A stretch of DNA of 64,000 nucleotides from an uncultured Solirubrobacterales bacterium (lineage in GTDB: Bacteria; Actinomycetota; Thermoleophilia; Solirubrobacterales; Solirubrobacteraceae): assembly GCA_963746645.1 (NCBI GenBank), contig CAVVBQ010000005.1, positions 1,864,279 to 1,928,278 of the forward strand, written 5' to 3'. How positions within the stretch are numbered: the first letter of the stretch is position 1; the number at the start of each line of letters is the position of its first letter. Made by a program: the position numbers and the translations under genes. This document shows positions 5,062 to 64,000 of the stretch, piece after piece. Under the pieces are notes generated by a model. That model made no database searches, was not told where the DNA came from, and saw nothing but the letters and a program-made list of their open reading frames with translations.

Positions 5062-5226
5062 TACTCGAGAAAGCCTAGCGACGGCCCACCGGCGAGCAAC
5101 CAGATCCGTTCGCTTTGACTTCGGCTGGCTCCGTGAGAGGATCGTCTGCGCACGCCCCGCATCCTCATTGCCTGCCACAATTCGAGGATAGAATCACGCA
5201 AGTGATCGACCCATCGGACGTGTGAT

Positions 5227-5646: not shown

Positions 5647-5674
5647 GGATGACATCGCATCGGGCACACTGTCG

Positions 5675-7396: not shown

Positions 7397-7556
7397 TCCC
7401 ATCGATGGCCAACCCCGCCTGAGGCTCTGGTCACTACGCCGACCCTCGCCGGTCCGTGAAGCGCCTGCTTGATGGTCTCCTATGAGCCCTAGGATCGGGC
7501 ATGGGCTCGATCGCTTCGGCTAGCGCACCGGCCCCCGATAGGCAATAATCCGCAGC

Positions 7557-10673: not shown

Positions 10674-11367
10674 GGATTTGCTTGGCAGTGCCCGCCGGCG
10701 GGACCTGGGCGAGGCCGATAAGAGCGACGAATCCGAGTCGGTGCCGCCGATCGAGGCCATAGCATCGAACCAGCCGATGGCTATACCCTCCGCCAGTGCC
10801 ACTCCCGCTCACTCCGGGAAGGTTCGCTGGCCGCCGGCTTGGCTTACGAACGTTGGCGTCGTCATCGGCCTTGGCCTCATCGTGCTCCTTTCCTCAATGG
10901 CGATCGGAGCCGCGGCGACATCGATGACTGAACACGGAGTCTCGGTGGGCGATTTCCAGTTCGCCGGGACTTCTGCCAAGGCCGAACTGGCCTACAACCA
11001 ACTCGGTCAGAATGGTCGCCGCTCCGCCTGGTGGTTTCTCGCGTTTGAGCTTCCCTTCCTCGTCGGTTACGGTCTACTGCTCTGCGCAGGCTGCGCCTTC
11101 GCTGCCCGCCAGCTCGCGGCGGCGGGGGCCGAACGTCTCGCGCGCCTTGCCCGTTTTAGCGTGGTCTTCGGTTTGCTCGCCGCCGGCTCCGATCTGATTC
11201 AGAACTCGGCCCTTGCAATCAACCTCATGGGCCACTTCGCCCAGCCTGCCCCCCGCATTGCCGAGGTATTCGGTGATCTCATCTGGGTCTTCGGCATCTC
11301 TGCTGGGTTCGTCTTCGTCGCAGGGTGGATCTTCGCGGCGCTCCGGTCCAGGCAAGTGGCGCCCTAA
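10660..11367 (+). CDS. hypothetical integral membrane protein
   Basis: About 4-5 hydrophobic segments; TTG start overlaps upstream stop (alternative ATG 10777). Confidence 0.6.
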   Translation: MALDEDLLGSARRRDLGEADKSDESESVPPIEAIASNQPMAIPSASATPAHSGKVRWPPAWLTNVGVVIGLGLIVLLSSMAIGAAATSMTEHGVSVGDFQFAGTSAKAELAYNQLGQNGRRSAWWFLAFELPFLVGYGLLLCAGCAFAARQLAAAGAERLARLARFSVVFGLLAAGSDLIQNSALAINLMGHFAQPAPRIAEVFGDLIWVFGISAGFVFVAGWIFAALRSRQVAP

Positions 11368-22345: not shown

Positions 22346-23254
22346 GTGCGGATCGTTAGTCTCGTACCCCACGCCACCGAGCTGCTGTTCGCGCTCGAGC
22401 TAGGCCCCGAAGTCGTTGCGGTTACGCACGAGTGCGACTACCCTTCCGCGGCGCTATCCGTCGAGCGGGTAACGCGCGACGTGCTACCCGCCGGCCTAAA
22501 TGCCGCGGAGATCGACGCGGCGGTGCGTGAGCGTACTCTGCACGGTGAGGCGATCTACGAGCTTGATCGGGAGACCATCGCTTCCCTTAGCCCAAACCTG
22601 ATCGTCACACAAGCCCTCTGCCCCGTGTGTGCGGTCTCCTACACCGAGGTGGCCGAGCTCGCCGAAAGGATTCCCTCCCAACCCCAAGTGATCTCGCTCG
22701 ATCCGCATACATTGGACGAAACCTTGGGCGATATTCGCACGCTGGCGGCAGCCACCGACCGTCATCAGCGAGGAGCGGAGCTGGTTGGAGAGGCAACCGC
22801 GCGCATCGATCGCATAAGAAGCGCGGTGCGAGGCCGACGCCGCCCGCGGGTCATGGCGATCGAGTGGCTCGATCCCGTCTATGTCGCCGGTCATTGGACC
22901 CCCGAGCTGGTTGAGTTGGCTGGCGGACAAGACTTGCTGGGTTCCCCGGGGGAACCCTCTGCCACTGTCTCTTGGGAGGCGATCATCGCCGCTGAGCCCG
23001 AGATCGTGGTGGTTATGCCTTGTGGCTATGACGGCCCCCGGGCACACACAGAGGCCCTTGCTTATGCGAGCCAGCTAGCCGCCCTATCGGCCCAACGAGT
23101 CCTGGCCGTAAATGCATCTGCCTACTTCTCCCGTCCCGGCCCACGCCTGATCGACGGCTTGGAGTTGCTTGCCCACATATTGCACCCCGAATGCGTCCCC
23201 GACGCCCCCGATGTCGCACTCCCGGTAGACCTGAGCACCTCGGGCATCCAATGA
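22346..23254 (+). CDS. cobalamin-binding/BtuF-like substrate-binding protein
   Basis: RIVSLVPHATELLFAL...VAVTHECDYP...YFSRPGPRLIDGLELLA; the ORF-track start at 21809 overlaps the hydrolase and is not used. Confidence 0.8.
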   Translation: MRIVSLVPHATELLFALELGPEVVAVTHECDYPSAALSVERVTRDVLPAGLNAAEIDAAVRERTLHGEAIYELDRETIASLSPNLIVTQALCPVCAVSYTEVAELAERIPSQPQVISLDPHTLDETLGDIRTLAAATDRHQRGAELVGEATARIDRIRSAVRGRRRPRVMAIEWLDPVYVAGHWTPELVELAGGQDLLGSPGEPSATVSWEAIIAAEPEIVVVMPCGYDGPRAHTEALAYASQLAALSAQRVLAVNASAYFSRPGPRLIDGLELLAHILHPECVPDAPDVALPVDLSTSGIQ

Positions 23255-24756
23255 TCTTCAGGCGCAGACCCGGGCCCATGCTGGAATGGATAGCGATGCT
23301 CCCATCGATGCGCCTAGACTCACGCCTCCGTACCCCTGCACTCAATCTCACCCGGCTGGTCACGCCCATCGCGCTTACCGGTCTACTGCTAGCCGCGTGC
23401 GCCTCTGGGTCTGGGTCGGGTGCCGGCGGGCATGAGCACAGCGGGGCGACGGCCAGCACAGCTGGTCCCCGTCCCCTTGCTTCGCGCCCCTATGCCCGGC
23501 CGTCAAACTTCGCGCCGACGACACTCAGAGTCCCTCCGGGTAACAGTGGCAAGCCTTTCGACGTACCTCACAGCCTTACCGTTCCACCCGGCTGGAGTGT
23601 AGAAGTGTGGGCGCGCATTCCCGATGCACGCTTTGCCGTATGGACCCCCCAGCACGATCTGCTCGTCAGTGCCTCAACGTCCGGCCAGGTGGTGGAGTTG
23701 ACTCCCGGGCAGAAGATGACAGCGGCAAGTCAGAAAGTGCTGGCGTCAGGACTCTCAGGACCGCAGGGCATGGCTTTTGACACCTTCAAAGGCACCCGGT
23801 TTCTCTATATCGCCGAGACAAACCAGATCGATCGCTACGTGTGGAAGGGCAATGGAAGGCTCGGTCCACGCACGGTCGTAGTTAGCGGATTGCCCGACAC
23901 CGACCCCTCGGGGGACGATGTGCATCGTGCCAAGAGTGTCGCCATCGGACCCGATCACACGATCTATGTGACAGCTGGTAGTGCTTCCAACGCAACCCCC
24001 ACCGACAGAGGCGAATCTCCTCCACGCGGCACAATCCTGGCCTACAGCCGTAATGGCACCCACATGCACGTGTTTGCCCGCGGGGTGCGCAACGGTGAGG
24101 GTCTGTCATTCGCGCCCGACGACGCGCTATGGACAGCCGTCAACGAGCGCGATGAAGTCGCCTACCCCTTTCACCGCTCCTATGGAGAACAGGGCGAAGC
24201 CTACGGCGAGGTGATCAAGTCCTACGTGAACGAACACCCCGCCGACGAGCTCGCACGGCTGACGCCGGGGCGCAACCTCGGCTGGCCATTCTGTGACCCC
24301 GACCCCGACGTGACCCCAGGCGACCCCTCCGCCGCGCTGCAATACGCCAATCTTCACCTCGACGCTGACGTACAAACAAACCCTGGCGGGAGTGTGCTCA
24401 ATTGCGCCGCCCTCGCGCCAATCGAGCGGGGGCTGCCAGCGCACAGCGCTCCTTTGGGCTTTCATTTTCTAGAGGGGACTAAGCTCGTCCGCCCGTGGTC
24501 ATCTGGCGCGGTGGTGGCTGTACATGGGTCTTGGGACCGCACACCGCCTCGGGCGCCAGCGGTGCTTTGGCTTCCGTGGCAGAGCAAAGCACGCACCCTG
24601 GGAGGAGCCATCCCACTCATCAGCGGCTTCCAGGAAGCTTCTGGTGCCCGCTGGGGACGTCCGGCCGACGCCGTGGCGGGTCCAGACGGAGCCCTGTATG
24701 TGACCGATGACACCGCGGGCGCCGTCTACCGCATCAGGCCCAAGCACATCCGGTAA
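23251..24756 (+). CDS. glucose/sorbosone (PQQ-dependent sugar) dehydrogenase-family lipoprotein
   Basis: Lipobox LLAAC; FARGVRNGEGLSF, GRNLGWPFC, AHSAPLGFHF, HGSWDR, GRPADAVAGPDGALYVTDD; ATGA overlap. Confidence 0.85.
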   Translation: MIFRRRPGPMLEWIAMLPSMRLDSRLRTPALNLTRLVTPIALTGLLLAACASGSGSGAGGHEHSGATASTAGPRPLASRPYARPSNFAPTTLRVPPGNSGKPFDVPHSLTVPPGWSVEVWARIPDARFAVWTPQHDLLVSASTSGQVVELTPGQKMTAASQKVLASGLSGPQGMAFDTFKGTRFLYIAETNQIDRYVWKGNGRLGPRTVVVSGLPDTDPSGDDVHRAKSVAIGPDHTIYVTAGSASNATPTDRGESPPRGTILAYSRNGTHMHVFARGVRNGEGLSFAPDDALWTAVNERDEVAYPFHRSYGEQGEAYGEVIKSYVNEHPADELARLTPGRNLGWPFCDPDPDVTPGDPSAALQYANLHLDADVQTNPGGSVLNCAALAPIERGLPAHSAPLGFHFLEGTKLVRPWSSGAVVAVHGSWDRTPPRAPAVLWLPWQSKARTLGGAIPLISGFQEASGARWGRPADAVAGPDGALYVTDDTAGAVYRIRPKHIR

Positions 24757-24837: not shown

Positions 24838-24900
24838 GTCGTCGCACACCACTACAAAATAGGTGGTGCCGGCGCAGGTCGGGTGCTTGGGGGAGACGAG

Positions 24901-25668
24901 ATGGGAAGGCGCAGGACTAGAATTTTCCTGATTGCGCTGCTTGCTTGTGCCTGCGTGCTCCTAGCAGGCGCCGCTTGGGCAGCCGACACGCTGGTAGTAC
25001 ACGAGAGCTTCACCCCCAACAAGCTGGGGGTCCCCACCAATCTCTCGATAACCGCGAAATTCAGCTCCACTACCGGCGCCCCACCTTCGCCGATAATCAA
25101 GCTCACGCTCTATGCCCCCGCCGGCTTGAGAATCGACGCACGCGGCGCCGGCGCTTGCAGCGAACGCGTGCTTCAGCAACGTGGGCCTAGTGGTTGTCCC
25201 GCAAACTCGCGCGCGGGCTTCGGTGGCGGGGTGGGGCTCGTCGAACTGCCCAAATCTGTCATCCATGAGCCCTTCACAATCGACTTCTTCTTTGCTCCCT
25301 CCCAACATGGACATATCACTTTGCTCGCCTACGCCAGCGCCATCGCCCCAGTTTCGGTGGAACTTGTCGTGGTCGCTAGGGAAGTCCCTGCGCCCAAGCC
25401 CTACGGGCTCGGCTTCAGCGTCGAAATACCTACCGTCTCCACCATACCCGGGGCGTCCTTGGCCTCGGTCGAAAGCGCCTTTGCCACATTTGGGGCGACC
25501 AATGTCGCCTACTACGAGACAGTCCACGGCAAGCGCACGCTCGTGCATCTACGCGGCATGATCTCGCCCAAGCACTGCCCCCCAGGCGGCTTTCCAAGCG
25601 AGGGCAAGATCGACTTTGCCGACGGTACCACCTTGACCGTCAATCCCACAATCCCGTGCCCCAAGTAG
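24901..25668 (+). CDS. secreted 4-Cys beta-domain protein A (uncharacterised)
   Basis: Signal peptide; C-x12-CPxxS motif and terminal CP.GGF...CP; paralog of 25671-26411 and 59621-60457. Confidence 0.8.
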   Translation: MGRRRTRIFLIALLACACVLLAGAAWAADTLVVHESFTPNKLGVPTNLSITAKFSSTTGAPPSPIIKLTLYAPAGLRIDARGAGACSERVLQQRGPSGCPANSRAGFGGGVGLVELPKSVIHEPFTIDFFFAPSQHGHITLLAYASAIAPVSVELVVVAREVPAPKPYGLGFSVEIPTVSTIPGASLASVESAFATFGATNVAYYETVHGKRTLVHLRGMISPKHCPPGGFPSEGKIDFADGTTLTVNPTIPCPK

Positions 25669-25670
25669 GC

Positions 25671-26411
25671 ATGGCAAAAAAAATCTCATCTGCGCTTTGC
25701 CTAGCCTTCCTCGCGATCCTAGCCCTAGCTCCGGCAAGCGCACAAGCCGTCTCCGTCACAATCGCACCGTCTCTTTCACCAAACCGACTTGGCGCGGAGG
25801 GTGCACTCACACTCACGATCCATTTCACCGAAGGCGGATCTGAAGACGTACCATCACCCGTGCGCCGCTCAGTCCTGCGTTTCCCCGCCGGGCTCGGTAT
25901 CGAAATTCCCCATCTGCGCAGCTGCTCCATCACACGCTTGCGTGCCCGCGGTCCAAGCGGTTGCTCGGCACAGTCCGAGCTCGGCCATGGACACGCCATT
26001 GCGGAGGCTTTGGCGGGATCGCAGCTCATCACCGAGAACATCTCCCTATGGCTCTTTCTTGGCCCTTTTCACAATCTTGAGCCGAGCTTTGAGATTCTCG
26101 GCCAAGGCTTTACCCCGTTTGACGAGAACGTCGTACTCACCGGTACCGTCGTACCCGATCAGGCGCCCTACGGGGAAGACTTGGTGCTCTCCATACCTCC
26201 GATCCTCACCGTCCCTTTGGAGCCCGACGCCTCGATAGTGACGATGACCCTCACAGTCGGCGCAAGCAAACCGCCCCACCCCGCCCAAGCCAACATGGTC
26301 GTCGTACCTTCAACCTGTCCTGCCAACGGTTTCCCGTTCGCAGCCGAATTCACCTATGCCGACGGCTCGTCCGGCAGCGCCCTCGCCGATGCGAGATGTC
26401 CCAAACGATGA
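25671..26411 (+). CDS. secreted 4-Cys beta-domain protein B (uncharacterised)
   Basis: Signal peptide ending AQA; SPNRLG, PSP, C-x12-C, CPANGFPF...C motifs shared with A. Confidence 0.8.
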   Translation: MAKKISSALCLAFLAILALAPASAQAVSVTIAPSLSPNRLGAEGALTLTIHFTEGGSEDVPSPVRRSVLRFPAGLGIEIPHLRSCSITRLRARGPSGCSAQSELGHGHAIAEALAGSQLITENISLWLFLGPFHNLEPSFEILGQGFTPFDENVVLTGTVVPDQAPYGEDLVLSIPPILTVPLEPDASIVTMTLTVGASKPPHPAQANMVVVPSTCPANGFPFAAEFTYADGSSGSALADARCPKR

Positions 26412-26442: not shown

Positions 26443-26958
26443 ATGAGCAGTCAGAAAAACCAATCTAAATATCTCCAAGGCGCCCTCGTCGCTCCCCTCG
26501 CCTGCCTGACGCTCCTATCACCCTTTGCGCCCCTCGCACCCGAAGTGACTCACGCATCCGAGCACTCCACACGCAGCTTGGCACGCCAAGCGCGTACGGT
26601 CACTTTGAATGAGAGCGGCAATCTGCACCTCACCAGCAGGCACGGGTTCACCTTGAATGAGCAGGGCCCGGCAAAAGGCACGGTCTCAGGCACGATCTAT
26701 GTTCACTTGAAGATCGTCTCCTCAAGCCACGTCACGGCCGAAGTGAATATTTATCCCAAAGGTGGCTCGATCTCTGGCTACGGTACGGCCAGCTACCGCA
26801 GGGAAGGAGCCAAGGGCAATTTCTCAGGCTCACTCTCGATCAATCGCGGGAGCGGAAGCTTTAACCATGCCCAAGGCTCGGGGCTGAGCTTCAGCGGCAC
26901 GATCCAACGATCCAACTACGCCGTGACTGTGCGCGTGAGCGGCACAGTCACGGACTGA
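26443..26958 (+). CDS. small secreted all-beta protein C (uncharacterised)
   Basis: Signal-like N-terminus; alternating beta pattern; paralog of 60472-60981 (LSFSGTIQRSNxAVTVRVSG). Confidence 0.8.
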   Translation: MSSQKNQSKYLQGALVAPLACLTLLSPFAPLAPEVTHASEHSTRSLARQARTVTLNESGNLHLTSRHGFTLNEQGPAKGTVSGTIYVHLKIVSSSHVTAEVNIYPKGGSISGYGTASYRREGAKGNFSGSLSINRGSGSFNHAQGSGLSFSGTIQRSNYAVTVRVSGTVTD

Positions 26959-26979: not shown

Positions 26980-27672
26980 ATGCTGGAGCTACGCGAACTC
27001 GTCAAGCACTATCCATCCATTGGCGGGGAGACGGTGCGGGCCGTCGACGGGGTGAGCTTGAAGGTGAATGGAGGCGAGATGGTCGCCCTCTACGGGCCGT
27101 CGGGATCGGGCAAGACGACTTTGCTGCTGATGGTCGCAACCTTGCTCGCGCCGACCGCCGGTGAGGTCCTCATCGGGGGGCGCGATATCTCCTCGCTGTC
27201 TGAGCGAGAGGCCTCACACTTCAGGCTCTCCGAACTCGGCTTCATCCGCCAGAACTTCGACCTGCTCCCCGGTGTGACCGCGATCGACAACACCGTGCTC
27301 AAGCTGCTCAAGGCGATGCGCTGGCGCGAGGCTCAGCGCGAGGTCACACCCCTGCTTGAGCAGCTCGGCCTCGGCGAGCGTCTGCACCATCGCTCGGAGA
27401 CGCTCTCCATGGGCGAGCGCCAGCGCGTGATGATCGCACGCGCTCTTTCGACCAAGCCCTCCATGCTGCTCGCCGACGAGCCCACCGGCAGCCTCGATAC
27501 CCAGCGTGGACGCGAAGTGCTTGAGCTGCTGCGAGGCCTGTGCCGCGAGCGAGGCGTTGCCGTCGTACTTGTCTCCCACGACCCGATGGCTGCGGATTAC
27601 GCCGACCGTGTCTATGGCCTGCGCGACGGCAAGCTCTCGGACAATCATGCCCCCGAGCGAATGCTCGCCTAA
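26980..27672 (+). CDS. ABC transporter ATP-binding protein (LolD/MacB-like)
   Basis: Walker A GPSGSGKT, signature LSMGERQ, Walker B LLADEP, H-switch VSHD. Confidence 0.95.
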   Translation: MLELRELVKHYPSIGGETVRAVDGVSLKVNGGEMVALYGPSGSGKTTLLLMVATLLAPTAGEVLIGGRDISSLSEREASHFRLSELGFIRQNFDLLPGVTAIDNTVLKLLKAMRWREAQREVTPLLEQLGLGERLHHRSETLSMGERQRVMIARALSTKPSMLLADEPTGSLDTQRGREVLELLRGLCRERGVAVVLVSHDPMAADYADRVYGLRDGKLSDNHAPERMLA

Positions 27673-30203: not shown

Positions 30204-30896
30204 ATGGCAGAAGACGAGCGGCGGCGCCCCTACAAACAGGTGGCGCGCGCGCAGGCCCAAGAGCGAACGCGCGAGACTCTGCTGCAAGCGGCAACTGAAG
30301 AGGTCGAGAAGGACGGCTGGAAGCAGGCATCGCTGGAGTCGGTCGCCGAGCGCGCGGGCGTCACCAAGCAGACAGCACTACGCCATTTCGGCTCCAAGCA
30401 AGGCCTACTCGATGCTGTTCTCAATCGAACAAGCTCGACGATTGTCAGAGAACGCGCCGAAGCGCCGGTCGGAGATATCCCAGGAGCGGTCGCCAACCTG
30501 GTGCGCCACTATGAGCGCTACGGAGACGTTGTCACGCGCCTACTGCCCTACAGGGACGCCGTGGTCCGTGTGCTCGGGCCAGACCGGCGCGACTCGCTCG
30601 CGCGTCGCGCCGTCGATCGCGGCCACGAAGTACACAGAGAGTGGGTCCTGAGCACGTTTGAGCCGCAGCTTGAGCATCTCGATGCGCGAACGCGCGAACG
30701 CCGGCTGGCGCAGCTTGTGGCGGTGTGCGACGTGTACATGTGGAAGATCCTCAGGCGCGACCTTGGCCTCAGCTTGACGCACGCCGAAGCAGCGCTCGTC
30801 GAGCTGATCGATCGTTTGGTCGAGCCAGACACGCCAAAGCGAAAGAAGAGCAAGCCACCAGTGCGAACACCGACACGACGACGCAAGCAGACATGA
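30204..30896 (+). CDS. TetR/AcrR-family regulator
   Basis: RETLLQAATEEV...SLESVAERAGVTKQTALRHFGSKQGLL; ATG 5 bp after permease stop. Confidence 0.9.
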   Translation: MAEDERRRPYKQVARAQAQERTRETLLQAATEEVEKDGWKQASLESVAERAGVTKQTALRHFGSKQGLLDAVLNRTSSTIVRERAEAPVGDIPGAVANLVRHYERYGDVVTRLLPYRDAVVRVLGPDRRDSLARRAVDRGHEVHREWVLSTFEPQLEHLDARTRERRLAQLVAVCDVYMWKILRRDLGLSLTHAEAALVELIDRLVEPDTPKRKKSKPPVRTPTRRRKQT

Positions 30897-53563: not shown

Positions 53564-54712
53564 TCAAAGGGAGCGGTAGAGCGCAAGCGTCTGGAGCGCA
53601 ATCTGCTCCCAGGAATAACGTCCATCGGCCGCCGCCCTGGCCTTCGCACGCATCTCGGACAGAGCGGTCGTGTCCGCCAGCAGCTCTCTGAGCGCCCGAG
53701 CAAGAGCGCGCGCGTCGCCCGCCGGGACCACACGCGCGGCACCTGTACTCGCCATCTCGGGAAAGCCGCCCACATCGCTAAGCAAGAGTGGCTTGCCAAA
53801 CGCCAAAGCGGTAAACAAGACACCAGACTGGTCGGCCTGCAGGTAGGGCAACACCACGAGGTCCGCGCGTTCGAAGTAAGCAGGCAGCTCGTCATCGCCG
53901 ATGAAGCGTGGGTCGAAGCGTACCTTCGCGGGCGCACTGGCCTTCAGAGCTGAAATATCCATCTTGGGCATGCCCGCGATCCATAGCTCGGCGTCCTCGA
54001 TCGGTGCCTCCCCATGGGCGCTGCCGTGCCAAGCATCGAGCAGCACATCAATCCCCTTATAGGGACGCATCAGACCGAACATGAGCACGACGGGTTTATT
54101 GCGTTGAGCTGCAGGGGCCGCAGGCACCCCCTCACGCGCGGGCGCACGCACACGTGGGGCACCAGCCAAGTGGGCGAACACGCCGTGGGGAATCACGTGC
54201 ACACGATCGCCGTCGGCGCCGAGCTCCTCGACCAGGCGTGCACGACCCTGCTCTGAGTGCACGACGATCGCATCGAAGCGGTCGTACAAGCGTCGCTGAG
54301 CCGCTAGCTGGCCGGGGCGCGGCTCGCGCGGGAGCACGTCGTGCGCGGTGAGCACGAGCGGACGGCGACGCTCGGTTCTTTTCGCGGGCGGCAGTAGGTA
54401 TCCGTCCAGATGCTGGACAGCCAGCCACTGGAAGTGAACGACGTCCGCGCTGCGTGCCGCACGGTGGTAGCGCAGCATGTCGGGTACGTGTTGCGCCAGC
54501 TTGCTCGCCAGGCGTACCCGCCCGGAGGGAGCGCCGAAAGCGGCGCGGTAGAAGAACTCGTGGCGCACATACCCGTTGGGCCTAGCAACTGGTCCATAGG
54601 CAAAGTGGCTGGTGAACAGCTCCACGTCGACGCCAGCGCTCGCCAGCGCATTGCACAGCGCATGGTCGTAGGGTGGCGTATAAGCGGAGGGGTCGATGAC
54701 GTGAACGCGCAC
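53564..54712 (-). CDS. family-4 glycosyltransferase
   Basis: FGLMRPYKG, VLPYLQADQSGVLFTALAFGKP; start set at GTG of VRVHVIDP. Confidence 0.9.
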   Translation of the reverse strand: MRVHVIDPSAYTPPYDHALCNALASAGVDVELFTSHFAYGPVARPNGYVRHEFFYRAAFGAPSGRVRLASKLAQHVPDMLRYHRAARSADVVHFQWLAVQHLDGYLLPPAKRTERRRPLVLTAHDVLPREPRPGQLAAQRRLYDRFDAIVVHSEQGRARLVEELGADGDRVHVIPHGVFAHLAGAPRVRAPAREGVPAAPAAQRNKPVVLMFGLMRPYKGIDVLLDAWHGSAHGEAPIEDAELWIAGMPKMDISALKASAPAKVRFDPRFIGDDELPAYFERADLVVLPYLQADQSGVLFTALAFGKPLLLSDVGGFPEMASTGAARVVPAGDARALARALRELLADTTALSEMRAKARAAADGRYSWEQIALQTLALYRSL

Positions 54713-54748
54713 CAGGGGAAGACAATACGGCGAGCGGTACATAGGCGG

Positions 54749-55912
54749 GTGACGCTTGCCGTGACGTTCGTGCTCGCGGCGCTCAGCTACTGGCTCACGG
54801 TGTTTCCTCGAGTGTGCCTTCACATAGCGCGCTGGCAGCGACAGGCAAAGCGTATTCCCGACCCCGTGCTACGCGGATTAGCGCTCGCCGCGCTGTCGGA
54901 AAAGCGTGGCAACATCGAGGGCGCAGCCGCGTTCGCTGCGTTCGCACCCTGGGCGAGCCGGGGTGCTGCCACTAAGGCAACCGGTGCCTTCCAGGCCGCT
55001 TATAACCTGCTCGACATGCTCGGCGAGCAGCCGAGTGCTGACCCTGTGCTCGATGGAGAGCGCCTGCACAATGCACTGCTGTTTGCCTTGGGCTGGCCTG
55101 CTCGCACACCGCCTGCCGACGGCGTAGATCCAGGCGTGCAGACACTCGACTGGTACGAGCACCATCCTCAAAGCAATGACGGCGGCTACCTGGACAGGCT
55201 TTTGGAGGAGTGCCGCGGCGCATTCGCGAGTCTGCCTAACTACGCCGTCGCTGCGCCTGCGGCACGGGCGGCAGCGGAGCGAATCGTCGCCTTTCAGAGC
55301 CTTAACCTGAGCGAGTCTCAAGGTGACCATGCGGGGCTCGAGCAGTGGGCACACAACGCCACCCCACCAGGCGCCGGACTGCAGTGGTGGGAGACCGCCG
55401 CCGCCGCTGGCTCCTCACTTGGGGTACACGCACTGATCGCGGCGGCGGCCGACGTAGAGCTTGAGGTGTGTGACGCGAAGCTGCTCGAACAAGCCTATTT
55501 TCCGTGGATCGGCGGACTGCACTCGCTGCTTGACAACTTGATCGACAAACATGAGGACGAGGCCGCGGGCCACCGCAGCCTCGTCGAGTACTACGGCCCT
55601 GAGCGTGCAGCCGAGCGAATGCGTTGGATGGCCGAGCAGGCGACCTTTCTGGCCGAAGATCTCCCCCACAGTCGACGCCATACGGTGGTGCTCGCAGGCA
55701 TGATCGGCAACTACCTATCTACCCCAGAAGCGCACACTGAGGAGCTGGCTCCGGTTAGCCAAGCAGTACTGGCAACCACGGGAGGTCTCGCCCGACCAAC
55801 GATGTTGGTATTCGAGCTACGACACCTGCCCGACCGCCTGCACAAAACTGTCGCTCACGGAGAACGATGCGTAGAGCATCCCGCAGCGCCCGACCTGGAC
55901 AGTTTCAGATAG
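54749..55912 (+). CDS. DUF2600 / tetraprenyl-beta-curcumene synthase (YtpB)-like terpene synthase family
   Basis: IPDPVLRGLAL, WWETAAAAGSSLG, YFPWIGGLHSLLDNLIDKHED resemble YtpB blocks; start uncertain (54701 or 54749). Confidence 0.8.
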   Translation: MTLAVTFVLAALSYWLTVFPRVCLHIARWQRQAKRIPDPVLRGLALAALSEKRGNIEGAAAFAAFAPWASRGAATKATGAFQAAYNLLDMLGEQPSADPVLDGERLHNALLFALGWPARTPPADGVDPGVQTLDWYEHHPQSNDGGYLDRLLEECRGAFASLPNYAVAAPAARAAAERIVAFQSLNLSESQGDHAGLEQWAHNATPPGAGLQWWETAAAAGSSLGVHALIAAAADVELEVCDAKLLEQAYFPWIGGLHSLLDNLIDKHEDEAAGHRSLVEYYGPERAAERMRWMAEQATFLAEDLPHSRRHTVVLAGMIGNYLSTPEAHTEELAPVSQAVLATTGGLARPTMLVFELRHLPDRLHKTVAHGERCVEHPAAPDLDSFR

Positions 55913-55940
55913 GGTTTCTGCACAGGTCAAGTAAGAGGGT

Positions 55941-56014
55941 GGTCGGTAGCTGAGTACAGTCGCCGGCCGATCCTAAGCAGGAGGGGGGTCGGTAGCATGG
56001 TCAGCTGCCGGCCG
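55941..56014 (+). repeat. imperfect tandem direct repeat (46-bp period) upstream of ABC operon 2
   Basis: GGTCGGTAGC at 55941 and 55987, each followed 10-11 nt later by GCCGGCCG (55962, 56007). Confidence 0.7.
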
Positions 56015-56036
56015 GTTACAAGGGAGAGGGACACGC

Positions 56037-56741
56037 ATGCTGGAGCTGCGAGATCTCGTCAAGCATTATCACACAGCCGGGGAGGAGACCGTACGCGCGG
56101 TCGATGGCGTGTCGCTGTCGGTTGCTACGGGTGAGATGGTGGCCCTATATGGGCCAAGCGGCTCGGGTAAGACGACACTGCTGTTGATGGTCGCGGCGCT
56201 GCTAGCGCCCACCAGTGGAGAGGTACTCGTCAACGGCCGCGACATCTCCTCGCTCTCAGAGCGCGAGGCGTCGCACTTCCGTCTTGCAGAAATGGGGTTC
56301 GTGCGCCAGAACTTCGACCTGTTGCCGGGAGTTACGGCGATCGACAACACGGTGCTCAAGCTGCTCAAGAACACGCCCTGGAAGGAAGCCCACGAACGCG
56401 TGCAACCGCTGCTCGAGCGCCTGGGCCTCGGCGGGCGCCTCACGCACCGCTCTGAGACGCTCTCGATGGGCGAGCGCCAGCGCGTGATGATCGCGAGAGC
56501 GCTCTCTACCGAGCCCAAGCTACTGCTCGCGGACGAGCCGACGGGTAGCCTCGACACGCAGCGCGGACGCGAGGTGCTGGAGCTACTGACCGAGCTTTGC
56601 CGCGAACGTGGGGTGGCGATCGTGCTGGTTAGCCACGATCCGCAGGCCGCCGGCTACGCCGACCGTGTGCTGGCTTTGCGCGATGGCCGACTGGTCGACT
56701 ACGACCCCGAGCAGGGGTTTGCCCCTGCCAACACCAAGTGA
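56037..56741 (+). CDS. ABC transporter ATP-binding protein, paralog of 26980-27672
   Basis: GPSGSGKT, LSMGERQ, LLADEP; long stretches identical to copy 1. Confidence 0.95.
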   Translation: MLELRDLVKHYHTAGEETVRAVDGVSLSVATGEMVALYGPSGSGKTTLLLMVAALLAPTSGEVLVNGRDISSLSEREASHFRLAEMGFVRQNFDLLPGVTAIDNTVLKLLKNTPWKEAHERVQPLLERLGLGGRLTHRSETLSMGERQRVMIARALSTEPKLLLADEPTGSLDTQRGREVLELLTELCRERGVAIVLVSHDPQAAGYADRVLALRDGRLVDYDPEQGFAPANTK

Positions 56742-56814
56742 GTCGCGCTGAGGAGCGTCAGCGCGACATGAGCCCAAAGATCGCAGTGCCAATCATGAGG
56801 TCCGGGGGGGTCCT

Positions 56815-59331
56815 ATGAGGTTTGCGAACGTGCTTCACCTATACCGCGTACGTTTGCGTGCTCGGGCGCTGCAGGAGTGCTTTGCGATCGTGGGGATCGC
56901 CGCTGGGGTGGGATTGCTGTTTGCCTCCCAGATCGCGAGCTCCAGCCTGTCGAGCTCTGTGGGACAACTCAACAGTGGGATCGTGGGTACAGCGAAGCTA
57001 CAGCTGACGGCCCGCGATGCCCACGGACTCCCGGAAAAGCTGGTGGCCGAAACTCGGCACCTGCAAGGTGTGAAGGTGGCGGCACCGCTACTCGAAGTGA
57101 GCGCTAATGCGGTAGGGCCCAAGGGGAGTGACTCGGTGGAGCTGGTGGGAGCCGACTCGGCACTTGCCGAACTGAAAGGCGCGCTCGTGCGTAAAGTCGC
57201 GCTCACTCCTTTCGCCGGGGTGGAAGCGGTCGTGCTGCCCGTGCCTGTCGCCCAGACGCTCGGCGTGAGGAAATTTGGCGACATCGTGCACTTCCAGGCG
57301 TTGGGGCACTCAAGCGAAGCGGCGCTCTATTCGCTGCTCACCGCAAAGCAAGTCGGTGCGCTCACGTCTAGCCCGATCGCGGTGAGCACGCTCGAATACG
57401 TCCAGAATGCAAGCGGCCTGCCTGGGCGCGTGAGCCGCATTCTGGTCGAGCCCAAGCCGGGACAGACGGCCACCGTGCAAGCCGGGCTAATGCGTCTCGC
57501 TGGTGGACACTATGGCGTGGAGGCCGCTAGCTACGACGAAGCGCTGTTTGCCAAGGCCGCCGCTGCTACCAACCAGTCAACGCAATTGTTTGCGGTGATC
57601 AGCGCCTTGGTGGGCTTCCTGTTTGCCTTCAACGCGATGCTCTTGACGGTACCCCAGCGCCGGCGCTTGATTGCCGACTTGCGCCGCGATGGCTATACGC
57701 CTAAGGCGGTGATCGCGGTCCTGATGTTCGACGCTGTTGTGCTTGGCACGATCGCATGCGCGATTGGACTGGTACTCGGTGACGAGCTGTCAATCCACCT
57801 GTTTCACTCAAACCCCGGTTACTTGTCCTCGGCGTTCGCGGTCGGCTCCGAGCGTGTCGTGAATTTGCAGAGCGTTGCGATATCGGTGATCGGCGGCATG
57901 GGGGCAGCGAGCGTGGCAGTACTCAGTCCGTTCAAGGACATTGTCTCGCGCAACCCGCTCGCCGCTATCGAAACCAAAGAGGGCACGAGCGGAAACACCT
58001 CCCTGCTGCTCACACTTGGCGGGCTACTGTGCCTGGCGGTGACAGTCGTGATCTTGCTGGCGGCTCCCCAGGCGGCAATCGTGGGAATGGTGACGTTGAT
58101 CGCCGCCCTGTTGGCCTTGCTGGCGCTCCCGCTTACGTGGATGCTCGCATTCGTGCGCAGGATCGCGCCCACGATCGTGAGTGCCGTGCCACATATCGCG
58201 GTGATGGAGCTGCGCGCTGGGCGATCGCGGGCGATCGCGATCGCTGCCACAGGGGCGATCGCGGTGTTCGGAAGCGTGTCGATCCAGGGCGCTCACAGCG
58301 ACCTCCTGAAGGGCCTCTACAACGCCGCTTCTGACGTGAACGCATCCACCGACATATGGGTGTCGGCTGCGGGGAACTCCAATCTGTTGATGACCTCACC
58401 GTTCGCGCCAACCCAGTTGAGCAAGCTCAGCGAGCTGCCGGGGGTGAGTGCAGTGCGCGTGTATCGAGGAGGCCTGCTCGATTACAAGGACAGACGTATA
58501 TGGGTGATTGCGCCACCCGCAGAAGCCTCTCCCTTGGTGCCGCCCACTCAGCTCGTGGAAGGCAACGTCAAGCAGGCCGATGCCCACTTGCGCGAAGGTG
58601 GCTGGGCCGTTGTATCGCTGGCGCTCGCCGAAGAACACAAATTGAAAATCGGCCAGTCGTTCACACTGCCGACGCCCAATCCCACAACTTTCAAGGTGGC
58701 CGCTGTGAGCACTAACATCGGCTGGGCGCCAGGTGCGATCGTGATGAGCTCAGACGACTACGCGAAGGCTTGGGGAAGCACGGATGCAAGCGCATACAAC
58801 GTGCTGATGAAGCCAGGCGTGGCGCCTGAGCAAGGCGTGCACGAGATCAGGGCGGCCCTAGGCAGCGGAACGGCACTTGCCGCGCAGACTTCTGAACAGC
58901 ACGCCAACACGCTACGCGCGATCACACGTCAAGGCCTTGAAAGGCTCTCGCAGATCGCCACCCTGATCTTGGTGGCCGCCGTAATGGCGATGGCTGCCGC
59001 GATGGGCGCCATGATCTGGCAGCGCCGCCCGCGGCTTGCGAAGCTCAAGCTAGAGGGCTTTCCTCACCGCGAACTGTGGTACACAATCGTGCTTGAGAGC
59101 CTGATGTTGCTCGGCGTGGGCTGCTTCAGCGGCGCGGTCTTCGGGCTGTTCGGCCAGCAATTGCTCGACAGAGCCCTGAACATCGTCATCGACTACCCGG
59201 TGGTCAGCTCGGTGGGAGTGATCGTGGCACTATCGAGCCTCGCGCTCGTAACCGCCTCGGCAGTGTTGATGGTGGCGATCCCCGGCTGGTTCGCCGCCAA
59301 GGTGCCGGCCGGCCTGGCCCTCCAGGACTAG
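56815..59331 (+). CDS. ABC permease, fused double MacB/FtsX type, paralog of 27676-30198
   Basis: Shared blocks ISALVGFLFAFNAMLLTVPQRRRLIAD, WQRRPRLAKLKLEG and terminal LALQD. Confidence 0.9.
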   Translation: MRFANVLHLYRVRLRARALQECFAIVGIAAGVGLLFASQIASSSLSSSVGQLNSGIVGTAKLQLTARDAHGLPEKLVAETRHLQGVKVAAPLLEVSANAVGPKGSDSVELVGADSALAELKGALVRKVALTPFAGVEAVVLPVPVAQTLGVRKFGDIVHFQALGHSSEAALYSLLTAKQVGALTSSPIAVSTLEYVQNASGLPGRVSRILVEPKPGQTATVQAGLMRLAGGHYGVEAASYDEALFAKAAAATNQSTQLFAVISALVGFLFAFNAMLLTVPQRRRLIADLRRDGYTPKAVIAVLMFDAVVLGTIACAIGLVLGDELSIHLFHSNPGYLSSAFAVGSERVVNLQSVAISVIGGMGAASVAVLSPFKDIVSRNPLAAIETKEGTSGNTSLLLTLGGLLCLAVTVVILLAAPQAAIVGMVTLIAALLALLALPLTWMLAFVRRIAPTIVSAVPHIAVMELRAGRSRAIAIAATGAIAVFGSVSIQGAHSDLLKGLYNAASDVNASTDIWVSAAGNSNLLMTSPFAPTQLSKLSELPGVSAVRVYRGGLLDYKDRRIWVIAPPAEASPLVPPTQLVEGNVKQADAHLREGGWAVVSLALAEEHKLKIGQSFTLPTPNPTTFKVAAVSTNIGWAPGAIVMSSDDYAKAWGSTDASAYNVLMKPGVAPEQGVHEIRAALGSGTALAAQTSEQHANTLRAITRQGLERLSQIATLILVAAVMAMAAAMGAMIWQRRPRLAKLKLEGFPHRELWYTIVLESLMLLGVGCFSGAVFGLFGQQLLDRALNIVIDYPVVSSVGVIVALSSLALVTASAVLMVAIPGWFAAKVPAGLALQD

Positions 59332-59620: not shown

Positions 59621-60457
59621 TTATTTCTTCTTGCGGACCGGCGGCGGACAGGGCACGTTATGCGTCGCGACAACTTGGCTGCCATCGAGGAACGTGAACT
59701 GCGCCGAGAACGGAAAGCCGCCGCTTGGGCATTTCGTTGGAAGCGAGATGCCCTGCGGTTTGTAGCCGACTAGTTTTCCGTGGACGCGCTTGTAGTACGT
59801 GAGATGACTGGGACCGATCGTTGAGTTGACGTTGATGATCGACACCGGCGGTCCGTTGGTGACGCTTTTGATTTCTGGGATCGTGGTGTCGAGATCGCCC
59901 CCGAAAGCGCCTTCCCCGGGCAACAGTTCGCCCGCGAAGACGATCTGCGCGTAGACCGGAGCAAGTCCGTTGGCATAGAAGAGCACCACGATGTTGCCTT
60001 CGTGCGGTGGTCCCATCAAAGCCTGGATTTCAGGGATCTCATGGCCCGCATCGGCCCCGAATGGGACCTCGACAAAGGCGCTGCCATGGCCAAGCCGAGA
60101 GTTCGGCGGGCAGCCGGCGATGCCTTTTTCGACCAATGCTTGGGGCTTGCAGATGGAAAGCCCAAGCGTGGTCGTCACGTAGTTCATGCCCTTGGGCATG
60201 CGCAGGCTGACATGGGTAAGCGGTGATGGCAGCCCACCGGTGGTGCTGCCGATCGTAAAACCGAACCCAATCGTCGTCGAAGCACCCAGCCTGTTGGGGC
60301 TAAACGACGTGTGCAAAGCAACCGTCTCTTCTGCCTGTGCCGAAGCACATACCCAGGAAGGCACAAGCAGGCAGCCGGAGACGACTAGCGCAAGCGCTAG
60401 GGCATGTCTTGGCAGGGGGATGCGGCTGAGGCCCCCGCCTATCCGCACTCTGGTCAA
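59621..60457 (-). CDS. secreted 4-Cys beta-domain protein A' (paralog of A/B)
   Basis: Signal peptide; SFSPNRLG, C-x12-CPPNSRLG, YYKRVHGK, CPSGGFPF...CP. Confidence 0.8.
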   Translation of the reverse strand: MTRVRIGGGLSRIPLPRHALALALVVSGCLLVPSWVCASAQAEETVALHTSFSPNRLGASTTIGFGFTIGSTTGGLPSPLTHVSLRMPKGMNYVTTTLGLSICKPQALVEKGIAGCPPNSRLGHGSAFVEVPFGADAGHEIPEIQALMGPPHEGNIVVLFYANGLAPVYAQIVFAGELLPGEGAFGGDLDTTIPEIKSVTNGPPVSIINVNSTIGPSHLTYYKRVHGKLVGYKPQGISLPTKCPSGGFPFSAQFTFLDGSQVVATHNVPCPPPVRKKK

Positions 60458-60471
60458 GGTGTCTCCAGCCG

Positions 60472-60981
60472 CTAATACGACATTGGTCCGCTCACGCGCA
60501 CCGTGACGGCGTCGTTAGAGCGCTGGATCGTGCCGCTGAAGCTGAGAGCGGACGCTTTTGCTTTGGAGTAAGTGCCGCTCCCTTTGGTGATCGCCAGAGT
60601 GCCAGAGAAGGTGGCGGTGGATCCCGCAACCCGATAGCTGGCTTTGGCGCTGCCGCTGATCGAGCCGCCACCTTTTGGATAGACCTGAACGTTGGCGCTC
60701 ACGCTGCGGGTCGAGGTGACCTTGAGCTGAAGATAGAGCGTCCCGGCGAGCGTGCCTTTGGCGGCGCCGGACTCTTTGAGTTCGACTCCGTGTTTATTCT
60801 GCAGATGTAGGCTGGCACTGTCTTTCAAAGTGAGCGAGCGCGCAGCTTTGGCGTGCGGCGACGCGGCGCCGGCGGCACCCGTCCCGAAGACAACGATTGT
60901 GGCTGTCGCGCCTAGTGCAAGCGCGGCAGACGAGATTCGCAACCGCGCACTCATGCGCTGGCGTGCTGGCTTGGTCCCCAT
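60472..60981 (-). CDS. small secreted all-beta protein C' (paralog of C)
   Basis: Signal peptide; YPKGG.SISG, LSFSGTIQRSNDAVTVRVSG; RBS GGAGGG before ATG 60981. Confidence 0.8.
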   Translation of the reverse strand: MGTKPARQRMSARLRISSAALALGATATIVVFGTGAAGAASPHAKAARSLTLKDSASLHLQNKHGVELKESGAAKGTLAGTLYLQLKVTSTRSVSANVQVYPKGGGSISGSAKASYRVAGSTATFSGTLAITKGSGTYSKAKASALSFSGTIQRSNDAVTVRVSGPMSY

Positions 60982-61230
60982 TGATCCCTCCATGTGGCTG
61001 TTGACGTCGCTTCCCATTAGAACAGACCCCTCTCCTCCGAGCGACTTCCTAAGCCCAAAGCCTAGTCCACATAACAGAAAGGCAGGGCAGTTAGACAATT
61101 CTAGTGCATATAGGCCTACGAAGTTCAACCCGTCAGGTAGGCGCGAGTTGCGGGAAAGCCGAGATCGTGGAGCCTTTGCTGTGACGCTACGCAAGAGCGC
61201 GCCCCGCCGCGCTACCCAACTTCAAGAGCC

Positions 61231-62217: not shown

Positions 62218-62292
62218 GAGTTGGTACCTCGGGTCGAATACCTCGGATGGCAAGCCGCCAGACTCGGGCGGCCGCCCAGAAGCGCTCTCCGT

Positions 62293-64000
62293 TTATTTCT
62301 TCCGGCTTTTGTGCCCGTTGTGCCGCGCCTTTACTTTGCGGGTCTTGTGTTTGGTGCAGCCTGTTGGTGTGACGGGTGTGTTTTGTGTGAGTGTTGCGCC
62401 GTTTTGGGCGGTGAATGTGGTGGGCATGGTGAGTTTGGTGGTGCAGAGGTTGCCGTTTGCGGCGAGCGCGCTGTTTGGTCCTTGGGGTAGCTTCAGGTCG
62501 AAGTCGCCGATCGGCACGTCGGGGACTTGCTTGAAAGTGGTGCTCGTGATCCCGGCTTTGCTGATGAACGTCGTACCGACTAGGTCGACGGTGACGCCGT
62601 AGCCTTGTAGGACTACGACGAGGTCTGGGAACGCCTCCCCTCCGTGCGAGACGAAATACACAGGACCGTAAAGCTCCACAGGCAGGACCGGCGTGTGTGC
62701 AATGGCAGTCCCGATCTTTGATCCTGCCGGACATGACGCGGGGTTCTCGTCAAACGTTGCTGCTGCACAGGCCTTTTGGAGGGTGGTGAGCCTTGAGGGT
62801 AGTTGCTTTGGCAGACTGACCTTGACCTTCGCGATGTTCGCTTGGTTACCCATCGAGTTCTTGGGATAGGTGAGCTTCGCGTCGATGCTCGCACCACTAG
62901 CCCGCGACGTCCTTCCACTCGTCGATACTTTGAACGAGGGTTTGAACCCGAGACGAGCACAGTTCGTTACTTGGAAACGAGACGACACAGGCTCTAGGAG
63001 TCCCTGACCGCCGGTGAGAGTTCCCGTGATCGCTTGGGGATTGCAGTCGGTGGGGTTGAAAATGAATCCCGGCCGGTCGATGTTCACGTTGATGACCCGC
63101 AGGTCGAGCGGGATTCCTTGCAGCATTGTTGGTAGGGGATCAGTGTTGACCGTTAGCGCTGCTGTATGCGGGTCAACGGTGATCGTGCCTCTGACTACGA
63201 CGGTGCCGAGATCGAAAGGTCCAGCCTTTGCCGGTACAACGACGCTCAGCCCGTACGGAGCACCCTTGTAAGAGCCAGTAGCGAATACCTGCCCGCCGTG
63301 CACATAGAACGGTGTCGCACCGGCGCCAGCGGCCACCGTTAGGTCCCCGATCTCAGATTCCAGACCGCACGTCCCTTGAGAGGCTAGTGGTTCCTGGCAC
63401 AGTTTGATCGTCGAGAGGGTCCCCAACAAGCCAGTCGGCAAGTGCATGCTGACCCCACCCAACTGCTGGTCCCCATCAGCCCTGCTCATCGTCAAGGACA
63501 GCGGGCTGAACGCACCAGCCTGGTTGCTGACCGTTCCCGCCGCAAAACCTGGAGCGAACTGAGCAGGCGCAGGACAAGGACCGCCACCCGGACCACTCGT
63601 GATCTGAAACGAATCATCCACCGTCACAGGTGGGTTACCCGACCACGGAGTTAGTTCGACACTCGTCGTATACGTCCCGCACTCGTGCGGATTGACCAAC
63701 GGTGACCTGGTTCCGCCATCGAAGTCGACCTTCAATTCCCCGAACGGCAATTGGGGGCTGTTATCGAACACCGACCTGATCTGTCCCGTCTGAGGATCCA
63801 GTTCGACGTGACCCGGGATCTTCAGGATCACCCCGTGACCTTCGGCCACCAGGTACAGAGCAATCAACGACCCGAACGGGTTTTCGCTCTGCCGGCCGAG
63901 GTACAGATGACCCCTCAGGGGATCGGATAGCACCGGCGTGACGATTTCAACCGAAGCGAGCTGTGAGGAATCGGGACATTTCGCCGGGGTTCCGTGATCG
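62293..64000 (-). CDS. large secreted-type protein made of tandem 4-Cys beta domains (5'-truncated by window)
   Basis: Frame open to window end; repeats with C-x9/11-C-xxxS-x-[IL][GA] and a second Cys pair; basic tail KHKTRKVKARHNGHKSRKK. Confidence 0.85.
   Translation of the reverse strand, partial: DHGTPAKCPDSSQLASVEIVTPVLSDPLRGHLYLGRQSENPFGSLIALYLVAEGHGVILKIPGHVELDPQTGQIRSVFDNSPQLPFGELKVDFDGGTRSPLVNPHECGTYTTSVELTPWSGNPPVTVDDSFQITSGPGGGPCPAPAQFAPGFAAGTVSNQAGAFSPLSLTMSRADGDQQLGGVSMHLPTGLLGTLSTIKLCQEPLASQGTCGLESEIGDLTVAAGAGATPFYVHGGQVFATGSYKGAPYGLSVVVPAKAGPFDLGTVVVRGTITVDPHTAALTVNTDPLPTMLQGIPLDLRVINVNIDRPGFIFNPTDCNPQAITGTLTGGQGLLEPVSSRFQVTNCARLGFKPSFKVSTSGRTSRASGASIDAKLTYPKNSMGNQANIAKVKVSLPKQLPSRLTTLQKACAAATFDENPASCPAGSKIGTAIAHTPVLPVELYGPVYFVSHGGEAFPDLVVVLQGYGVTVDLVGTTFISKAGITSTTFKQVPDVPIGDFDLKLPQGPNSALAANGNLCTTKLTMPTTFTAQNGATLTQNTPVTPTGCTKHKTRKVKARHNGHKSRKK

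Follow-up and report, generated by a model that had tools for sequence, protein, structure and literature searches.

We analyzed a 64,000-nucleotide stretch of DNA, hereafter the window, from an uncultured Solirubrobacterales bacterium (GTDB lineage Bacteria; Actinomycetota; Thermoleophilia; Solirubrobacterales; Solirubrobacteraceae; assembly GCA_963746645.1, contig CAVVBQ010000005.1, positions 1,864,279–1,928,278 of the forward strand). The window encodes two small paralogous proteins, C and C'. Structure prediction and profile comparison show C to be a putative divergent branch of the dirigent/allene oxide cyclase (AOC) barrel superfamily, outside the Pfam Dirigent family (PF03018) in the strict sense. 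The C family is genetically coupled to an ATP-binding cassette (ABC) transporter of type VII, and gene order and natural gene fusions show that C is also coupled to a β-sandwich protein, B, a partner absent from an earlier first-pass annotation of this DNA. We read C, together with its sandwich partner, as an extracytoplasmic binding module that would serve as an accessory of the transporter, and we assign this reading as a whole a probability of about one-half. What is new here is the barrel identity of C and the existence of natural B-C fusions; dirigent/AOC barrels and type VII transporters were already known.

The predicted barrel of C and C'

Over 125 residues, C and C' share 56% identity (E 6e-46). 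C' sits inside an open reading frame (ORF) at 60472..61194 (−). Although this ORF was listed with a TTG at 61194 as its first codon, C' more likely begins at the ATG at 60981, to which both an alignment of homologues and a preceding GGAGGG box point. Across 28 aligned homologues the ~125 C-terminal residues are conserved, and the N-termini, otherwise not conserved in sequence, share a basic stretch, a hydrophobic stretch (maximum hydropathy 2.18 in free C), and a [TS]-x-A site, a pattern that we read as a probable Sec signal peptide. The most conserved stretch of the family, as judged from 106 diverse members, is a glycine-rich motif, which reads INRGSGSFNHAQG in C and ITKGSGTYSKAKA in C'. In the numbering of the mature protein its positions are conserved as follows: G92 in 96% of members, a polar residue at S/T93 in 95%, G94 in 98%, Y/F96 in 100%, H98 in 74%, A99 in 80%, and G101 in 71%. 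When the window is translated in all six frames, the full motifs turn up in C and C' alone, and the shorter GSG[ST][FY] occurs once more, at 19466. The first-pass annotation had described C and C' as short, signal-bearing, all-β proteins carrying these motifs. The ORFs of 171 and 169 residues, the located motifs, and the predicted signal peptides agree with that description, as does, for the all-β character of C, the model described below.

An AlphaFold2 model of C, built for residues 45–171 from a 106-row alignment, reached a mean predicted local distance difference test (pLDDT) score of 94.0 and a predicted template-modeling (pTM) score of 0.82. It contains eight consecutive strands and no helix, with DSSP placing the strands at residues 8–23, 26–35, 39–47, 52–61, 64–77, 80–94, 100–111, and 117–126 of the mature numbering. 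These strands form an eight-stranded antiparallel meander β-barrel, which aligned over residues 6–126 with the DUF3224 protein 2q03 and over residues 4–127 with the plant dirigent protein AtDIR6. The motif, in general form I-x-[RKG]-G-[ST]-G-x-[YF]-x-H-A-x-G, occupies model residues 89–101, at the end of strand 6 and in the following loop. According to a survey of bacterial dirigent-like proteins (PMC9344732), their conserved 13-residue GGTG-Y/F stretch likewise closes strand 6 and continues into the next loop, so the positions of the two motifs coincide.

Comparison of the model against 48,161 chains with VIA-align ranked 2q03_B at the top, with a score of 12.5 (root-mean-square deviation 2.4, 111 residues aligned). 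The pyocyanin demethylase PodA (10.9), PloI4, AtDIR6, and PsPTS2 (10.7 each), Cyc15 (10.4), a second DUF3224 structure, 2ooj, and the JAC1 dirigent domain (10.1 each), AOC (10.0), and 3c5o (9.4) came next, and avidin-type barrels scored ~6.5–6.8. No YceI or lipocalin rows were found among the 50 matches listed by VIA-align, a result that still leaves room for a fold of that kind. The best Foldseek rows were PodA (2.4e-3), the Diels-Alderase Cyc15, 2q03, several dirigent proteins (TM-score up to 0.65), and AOC. The ESM Atlas gave unnamed actinobacterial clusters, the nearest named cluster being DUF3224 with a score of 0.81, which we treat as a lead only.

Read from the phase of the sequence rather than from coordinates, the strands of C alternate strictly between two faces, one hydrophobic or made of Gly/Ala and the other rich in Ser/Thr. 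The same reading places E73, a Glu conserved at 91%, in the hydrophobic, inward phase of strand 2 near the barrel end opposite the termini, and R156, an Arg likewise conserved at 91%, in the b7–b8 loop neighboring that end. The arrangement would recall the dirigent pocket, which PMC4340379 describes as hydrophobic, with a conserved Asp40 and Arg141 at its ends.

Profile-profile comparison provides the strongest sequence link to dirigent-like proteins. Our comparison set was drawn from bacterial Pfam Dirigent matches in a phylum sample (25 loci); we set aside a protein of an unpublished genome and six others whose matches were short or weak, and aligned the remaining 18. Compared with this set by hhalign, a diverse C alignment (A2) matched with a probability of 94.3% (E 9.7e-8, 61 columns), and an alignment limited to close C orthologues (A6) with 88.8% (E 2.5e-6). 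The C motif aligned to the ITGGTG-x-Y/F-x-x-A-R-G of the dirigent-like proteins; GGSISG was paired with GGSITVEG, and SINRGSGSFNHAQG with AITGGTGLYRNARG. The DUF3224 proteins behaved differently. Although they provide the best structural match to C, the diverse C alignment reached a set of 12 DUF3224 sequences, aligned as bare Pfam-matched regions, with a probability of only 0.57%. The dirigent-like set itself reached DUF3224 at 11.5%. In sequence, therefore, C is nearer to the dirigent-like proteins than C or those proteins are to DUF3224, and since dirigent-like proteins themselves reach DUF3224 at no more than 11.5%, the negative comparison of C with DUF3224 is uninformative. A DUF3224 protein was not found in this genome.

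Weaker matches fall in the same region. Dirigent is the commonest sub-threshold Pfam match among relatives of C (4 of 106 members and 3 of 150 representatives, in overlapping sets), and one of the 150 representatives has a weak AOC_like match (E 0.074). All of these matches map to the C-terminal third, where they run co-linear with positions 76–140 of the 148 in the profile. No AOC-family model in Pfam matched C or C'. A search of PDB sequences with the C-family profile aligned the C motif with ITGGTGEYANSKG of PodA at E 0.042; de novo β-trefoils (0.005) and a lumazine-synthase fusion ranked higher, through chance similarity to the last two strands. A search of PDB sequences with C as a single sequence gave nothing useful. 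The first-pass annotation's guess of an AOC/dirigent-like barrel thus gains support, for C, from the fold model, the 94.3% hhalign match, the PodA motif alignment, and the strand-6 position of the motif. As for competing names, one homologue (P0083) carries the JGI name "polyisoprenoid-binding protein YceI", which has no backing in Pfam (zero families at E ≤ 1).

Set beside the known members of this neighborhood, C has most in common with the bacterial dirigent-like proteins. According to PMC9344732, these have a signal peptide and a single ~125-residue eight-stranded barrel with G-[ST]-G-x-[YF] at the end of strand 6, come mostly from soil Actinomycetota, and have no assigned function. They differ from C in their motif (GGTG-x-[YF]-[RS]-G-A-R-G, as against [RKG]-G-[ST]-G-x-[YF]-x-H-A) and, according to the same survey, in two Cys of strands 3–4 that are conserved in 42 of 49 of them and that C lacks. 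C also lies in a conserved ABC-transporter operon, an arrangement that the survey does not mention. The plant dirigent and AOC proteins (PsDRR206, 4rev; AtDIR6, 5lal; PsPTS2, 8th2; AOC2, 1z8k) share the secreted eight-stranded meander barrel but assemble as trimers, have a defined pocket, and act on substrates that are known (monolignol radicals, allene oxide); their identity to C is 12–16%. PodA (PDB 5k21) is an enzyme acting on a phenazine, and its sequence match to C is confined to 25 residues.

Genetic coupling of C to a transporter and a β-sandwich protein

The window holds two copies of the C-transporter cluster (Table 1). In copy 1 the genes for the secreted β-sandwich proteins A and B, for C, and for an ABC ATPase, an FtsX-type permease, and a TetR-family regulator follow one another, the first two overlapping by 13 bp and the others separated by gaps of 31, 21, 3, and 5 bp; the position of C directly upstream of the ATPase gene, noted in the first-pass annotation, stands, with a gap of 21 bp. 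The best NCBIfam rows for the copy-1 ATPase name LolD, DevA, FtsE, MacB, and YbbA, every one below its cut-off. A hydropathy scan of the 840-residue permease gives ~10 transmembrane segments and two ~220-residue extracytoplasmic domains (stretches 41–260 and 494–715), an architecture like that given for YbbP, with ~10 transmembrane segments and two large outside domains, in PMC12646458. The gene for C is thus neighbored by those of an ATPase and of a permease that is FtsX-type and has large domains outside the membrane. Complex prediction for the permease (840 residues, 62-row alignment) with C (127 residues) scored 0.12 against a mark of 0.32, a value that says nothing either way. Pfam and NCBIfam searches with A, B, and A', the sandwich protein of copy 2, returned no family, A giving sub-threshold chance NCBIfam rows only.

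The coupling extends to related genomes. From 205 confirmed stretches we kept the best 79 loci, all from Solirubrobacterales records of metagenome-assembled genomes (MAGs). These were found with a closer C alignment (A1) and hold close relatives of C (52–86% identity), so their synteny is hardly informative on the family's more distant half. The ATPase and the FtsX permease are present in 79 of 79. In 71 of them no more than 200 bp separate C from the start of the ATPase, in the A-B-C-ATPase-permease arrangement; the other eight have C followed by an A'/A2-type gene with a DUF2600-ATPase-permease unit alongside, as in copy 2. In 73 of the 79, C has a gene of the A/B type no farther than 400 bp away, with an A-type gene upstream of B in most, and TetR matches follow the permease in 15. 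Two permease homologues each contain one in-frame stop (L006:5724-8252 and L017:7360-9786), for which a pseudogene or an assembly error is possible.

True PF03018 genes have different surroundings. Three genomes of the same family (L106, L107, and L109) have PF03018 matches over the cut-off and no C-family match, and within 1.5 kb of these PF03018 genes there are no relatives of A, B, the ATPase, or the permease. Among the 25 PF03018 loci, three, from other families, have an ABC ATPase of an unrelated type nearby.

Two further paralogues of C, 34% and 31% identical to it, are encoded elsewhere in the genome, and three of the four paralogues are placed in ABC clusters. The third belongs to an ATPase-permease-DUF2600-C-A operon outside the window; over positions 4649–11045 of this locus (L100, G000:C5:1728500-1748400) we observed, on one strand, two ABC ATPase genes, the permease and DUF2600 genes, a C-type barrel, and an A-type sandwich. 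The fourth lies in a C-A-Big cluster (L099, G000:C5:2917500-2937400, 5738–10100, −), where Big denotes a large secreted protein of A/B-like repeats. An additional A-like gene is found in the same locus at 17242–17760 (+).

Natural fusions also tie C to B. Among longer proteins our search identified 64 that contain a C domain, and 65 were examined (those 64 plus P0140). Sixty consist of a B domain followed by a C domain, three are Big-repeat proteins ending in C (P0277, P0300, and P0318), one is a fibronectin-III protein ending in C, and one resembles a miscall; in every fusion the C domain is C-terminal. We were able to parse the linker between B and C in 54 of the 60 and scored it where it had at least 13 residues (n = 51). 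On the scale that gives 2.18 for free C, a hydrophobic segment is absent from 51 of 51 scored linkers; the signal peptide has therefore been replaced by a basic, Pro/Ala-rich linker, and the fusions are genuine. In a structure prediction of one such fusion (P0127), each domain folds (pLDDT 79, pTM 0.62), the packing between them not being readable from the output; Foldseek with this two-domain model gave meaningless rows only, with TM-scores of at most 0.22. Distant C-like domains were also found on sulfatase-family proteins, C-terminal in 4 of 4 examined from two genomes, and these carry motifs, such as VGGTGDFRG, that stand midway between the canonical one and the motif of C. Given the B, Big, fibronectin-III, and sulfatase fusions, the barrel is a mobile C-terminal module of extracytoplasmic proteins, accompanied most constantly by the A/B sandwich and not by the transporter.

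Several further observations concern these longer proteins. Genes for sulfatase-family proteins (PF00884 and SGSH_C) with a C-like barrel lie at L127:693-7112 (+) and L126:2547-4574 (+). One same-family genome has three sulfatase-barrel genes in tandem, followed by a DsbA-like gene. Beside the sulfatase-barrel gene of L126, the product of 4615–5508 (−) has weak squalene-hopene-cyclase repeat matches (E 5e-6, at the cut-off), a possible terpenoid link. Another relative, P0166 (471 residues), combines a lipoprotein-type N-terminus (LAGC), a weak SurA_N/PpiC-like region (E 0.0035), and a C-terminal C barrel.

Proposed function and competing explanations

We propose that C and C' would be exported by the Sec pathway and fold outside the membrane as eight-stranded meander β-barrels of ~125 residues. 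Judging from their superfamily and from the alternation of hydrophobic and polar positions along the strands, C would bind a small, probably hydrophobic molecule. It would act together with an A/B-type sandwich, in trans in the present genome but in cis in the many proteins where B and C are naturally fused, and analogy and conserved synteny suggest that the B/C pair is an extracytoplasmic accessory of the ten-helix FtsX/MacB-type (type VII) transporter. According to PMC12646458, type VII ABC transporters use ATP to do work at the outer face of the membrane, such as lipid extraction and handover, examples being handover from LolCDE to LolA and from YbbAP to TesA. By analogy, the transporter encoded here would use ATP to extract a molecule from the outer leaflet, and C, or the B/C pair, would receive, present, or transform what is extracted. 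The first-pass annotation had likewise cast C as a putative extracytoplasmic carrier of the transporter's substrate, or as its stereo-directing partner, which would require a hydrophobic cavity; this part of its proposal stays a hypothesis. In C'-type clusters the molecule may, speculatively, derive from the co-encoded terpene-synthase-like DUF2600 enzyme. TetR regulators are usually small-molecule sensors, and the TetR genes of the operons, along with DUF2600 in one cluster type, fit a lipid or terpenoid without proving it.

Relative to YbbAP-TesA and LolCDE-LolA of E. coli, as presented in PMC12646458, the system here shares the ATPase and FtsX-type permease, the ~10 transmembrane segments and two outside domains of YbbP, a partner gene adjoining the transporter, and the proposed handling of outer-leaflet hydrophobic molecules. 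It differs in its putative partners, a dirigent-like barrel and β-sandwich proteins as against an SGNH hydrolase or a LolA fold, and in its host, an actinobacterium as against a Gram-negative proteobacterium; the permease, moreover, has no detectable sequence similarity to solved type VII permeases.

A number of results weigh against an accessory role for a dirigent-like C. Pfam and NCBIfam returned no family for C or C' at E ≤ 1, save sub-threshold chance NCBIfam rows for C', and the best of 106 relatives fell short of the PF03018 gathering threshold of 29.1 bits (E 0.0052, 16.9 bits). The hhalign match between the diverse C alignment and the dirigent-like set is limited to strands 4–8. The first-pass annotation had proposed to check the fold by AlphaFold modeling and structure search; the closed eight-stranded topology and the dirigent and AOC proteins among the top neighbors came out as expected, but a Foldseek search of the PDB gave zero matches at E ≤ 1e-3. 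Eight-stranded membrane barrels score nearly as high as dirigent proteins in VIA-align (OmpW 10.1, OprF 9.9, OmpA-type 9.8), so the Z score alone shows barrel geometry and not kinship. The permease as a single sequence had no significant match among solved chains, and its profile matched 5xu1 only (E 0.0075); with similarity this slight, "YbbP-like" rests on architecture. No ABC gene lies within ~9.5 kb on either side of the fourth paralogue, and the distribution of the family is patchy. Lastly, the barrel ends proteins of other kinds: a close relative closes the fibronectin-III protein, and distant C-like domains (profile E 1e-9 to 4e-18) end the sulfatase-family proteins, which have 674–733 residues and come from two other genomes; such placements would equally suit a module for general docking or anchoring.

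Three other explanations bear on the same data. C might be a cofactor-free enzyme, like AOC, PodA, or the barrel Diels-Alderases, that cyclizes, couples, or demethylates a molecule extracted by the transporter. Nearly all characterized structural neighbors are catalytic or guide reactions (AOC, PodA, PloI4, Cyc15, AbnU, PyrI4, and the dirigent proteins), and E73 and R156 recall Asp40/Arg141 of dirigent proteins as described in PMC4340379. Eight of the 79 loci contain a terpene-synthase-like DUF2600 gene, as do two clusters in the present genome, and TesA, the partner of YbbAP, is itself an enzyme that hydrolyzes what YbbAP presents (PMC12646458). However, no activity is known for the closest structure, 2q03; the sulfatases and repeat proteins to which the domain is attached already have functions of their own, a setting more typical of a binding module; and the majority cluster type, 71 of 79 loci, has no adjoining biosynthetic enzyme. 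An enzymatic C is in our judgment a minority possibility. The binding-module reading admits a more specific version, in which C is a transporter-bound receiver of an extracted lipid (a large DUF2600-derived terpenoid in C'-type clusters) and guides its cofactor-free cyclization or coupling with the sandwich partner. This version we consider quite improbable; if true, it would amount to an extracellular "extract-and-direct" pathway without a described counterpart, and for the first time the task of a bacterial dirigent-like protein could be read.

C could also be a docking or anchoring module that holds B, Big, or the sulfatases to the envelope or to the permease, the transporter then working as a mechanotransducer, as FtsEX does on EnvC/PcsB. 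PMC12646458 names a type VII system with a purely protein partner, FtsEX-EnvC. Placement of the domain is C-terminal throughout (60 B-C, 3 Big-C, 1 fibronectin-III, and 4 of 4 sulfatase-family proteins), and a transporter-free C-A-Big cluster exists. A docking role is unlikely all the same: strict conservation in C falls on Gly and on interior-phase positions instead of marking out a patch on the surface, the operon contains TetR regulators, and no member of the dirigent/AOC neighborhood is known to act as an anchor, although no search aimed at this was made. Least credible is convergence, that is, an unrelated eight-stranded barrel in which a Gly-rich hairpin mimics the motif by chance. The missing Foldseek match at E ≤ 1e-3, the negative hhalign comparison with the best structural match, DUF3224 (0.57%), and the weak PodA match, ranked below de novo β-trefoils, could be read this way. 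Against it stand hhalign E values of 9.7e-8 and 2.5e-6 from two different C alignments, the co-linearity of the match with the motif at the same strand end, the intermediate motifs of the sulfatase-borne domains, and the fact that the dirigent-like set itself reaches DUF3224 at only 11.5%. We therefore hold convergence to be very improbable, and retain the extracytoplasmic binding module as the preferred reading of C.

Distribution of the family and features of the window

To our knowledge, bacterial dirigent-like proteins are known from sequence surveys only and have no assigned function. Among 2000 candidates in a 90%-clustered collection we found 1586 homologues of C at E ≤ 0.01, and at E ≤ 1e-3 the family comprises 460 representative clusters at 50% identity. 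The few that are named are, one stray "YceI" apart, "hypothetical" and from Solirubrobacteraceae MAGs. In a sample of the order, at least 15 of 121 genomes, belonging to at least 9 of 48 genera, contain the family; in a sample of the phylum at least 3 of 201 do, those found being the present genome and two of the same class. The family is larger than the 49 genomes surveyed in PMC9344732, and it is invisible to Pfam. With a fixed partner set of a membrane-extracting ABC transporter, a β-sandwich protein, and a TetR regulator, the question of which ligand bacterial dirigent-like barrels bind becomes testable. C would also add a third kind of outside partner for type VII transporters, after LolA-type chaperones and TesA-type hydrolases, in the little-studied soil Thermoleophilia. 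In a full-text literature search, no link between dirigent-like proteins and FtsX/MacB transporters appeared among the matches listed, which is weak evidence of absence.

Table 1. Features of the C clusters within the window (positions count from the first nucleotide of the window)
Feature	Position	Strand	Remarks
Protein A, secreted β-sandwich protein	24883..25668	+	ORF; first gene of copy-1 operon
Protein B, secreted β-sandwich protein	25656..26411	+	ORF; ends 31 bp before C
Protein C	26443..26958	+	ORF, ATG start, 171 residues; predicted signal peptide and dirigent/AOC-like eight-stranded barrel
Predicted Sec signal peptide of C	26443..26556	+	~residues 1–38, site T-H-A|S; from N-terminal pattern of homologues
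Predicted barrel domain of C	26596..26952	+	~residues 52–170, strands b1–b8
Motif INRGSGSFNHAQG of C	26839..26877	+	end of strand 6 and b6–b7 loop
ABC ATPase (LolD/MacB/YbbA-like)	26980..27672	+	PF00005, 3e-34; 21 bp after C
FtsX-type permease, 840 residues	27676..30198	+	FtsX and MacB_PCD, two stretches each
TetR-family regulator	30204..30896	+	TetR_N, 5.8e-11; ATG at 30204; 5 bp after permease
Copy-2 module	54410..59331	+	convergent with A'-C'
DUF2600 (terpene-synthase-like) gene, copy 2	54410..55912	+	PF10776, 1.2e-67
ATPase, copy 2	56037..56741	+	ORF
Permease, copy 2	56815..59331	+	ORF
Protein A', β-sandwich protein	59621..60457	−	ORF directly downstream of C'
Protein C', paralogue of C	60472..60981	−	169 residues from ATG at 60981
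Motif ITKGSGTYSKAKA of C'	60553..60591	−	starts at 60591
Big, large secreted protein of A/B-like repeats	62293..63999	−	ORF; runs past window end

Further genes border the two clusters. Between C' and Big, positions 61231–62253 (−) encode a regulator that joins TetR_N to a C-terminal MarR-type winged helix, and relatives of this regulator adjoin C'-type clusters in two of the loci (L054 and L070). Upstream of the copy-1 cluster lies an ORF of 2992 residues at 11445–20423 (−). Directly upstream of A, at 23191–24756 (+), is a gene for a secreted β-propeller resembling glucose/sorbosone dehydrogenases (PF07995, 2.9e-7), a relative of which was detected, among the 79 loci screened, in the closest one only (L005).

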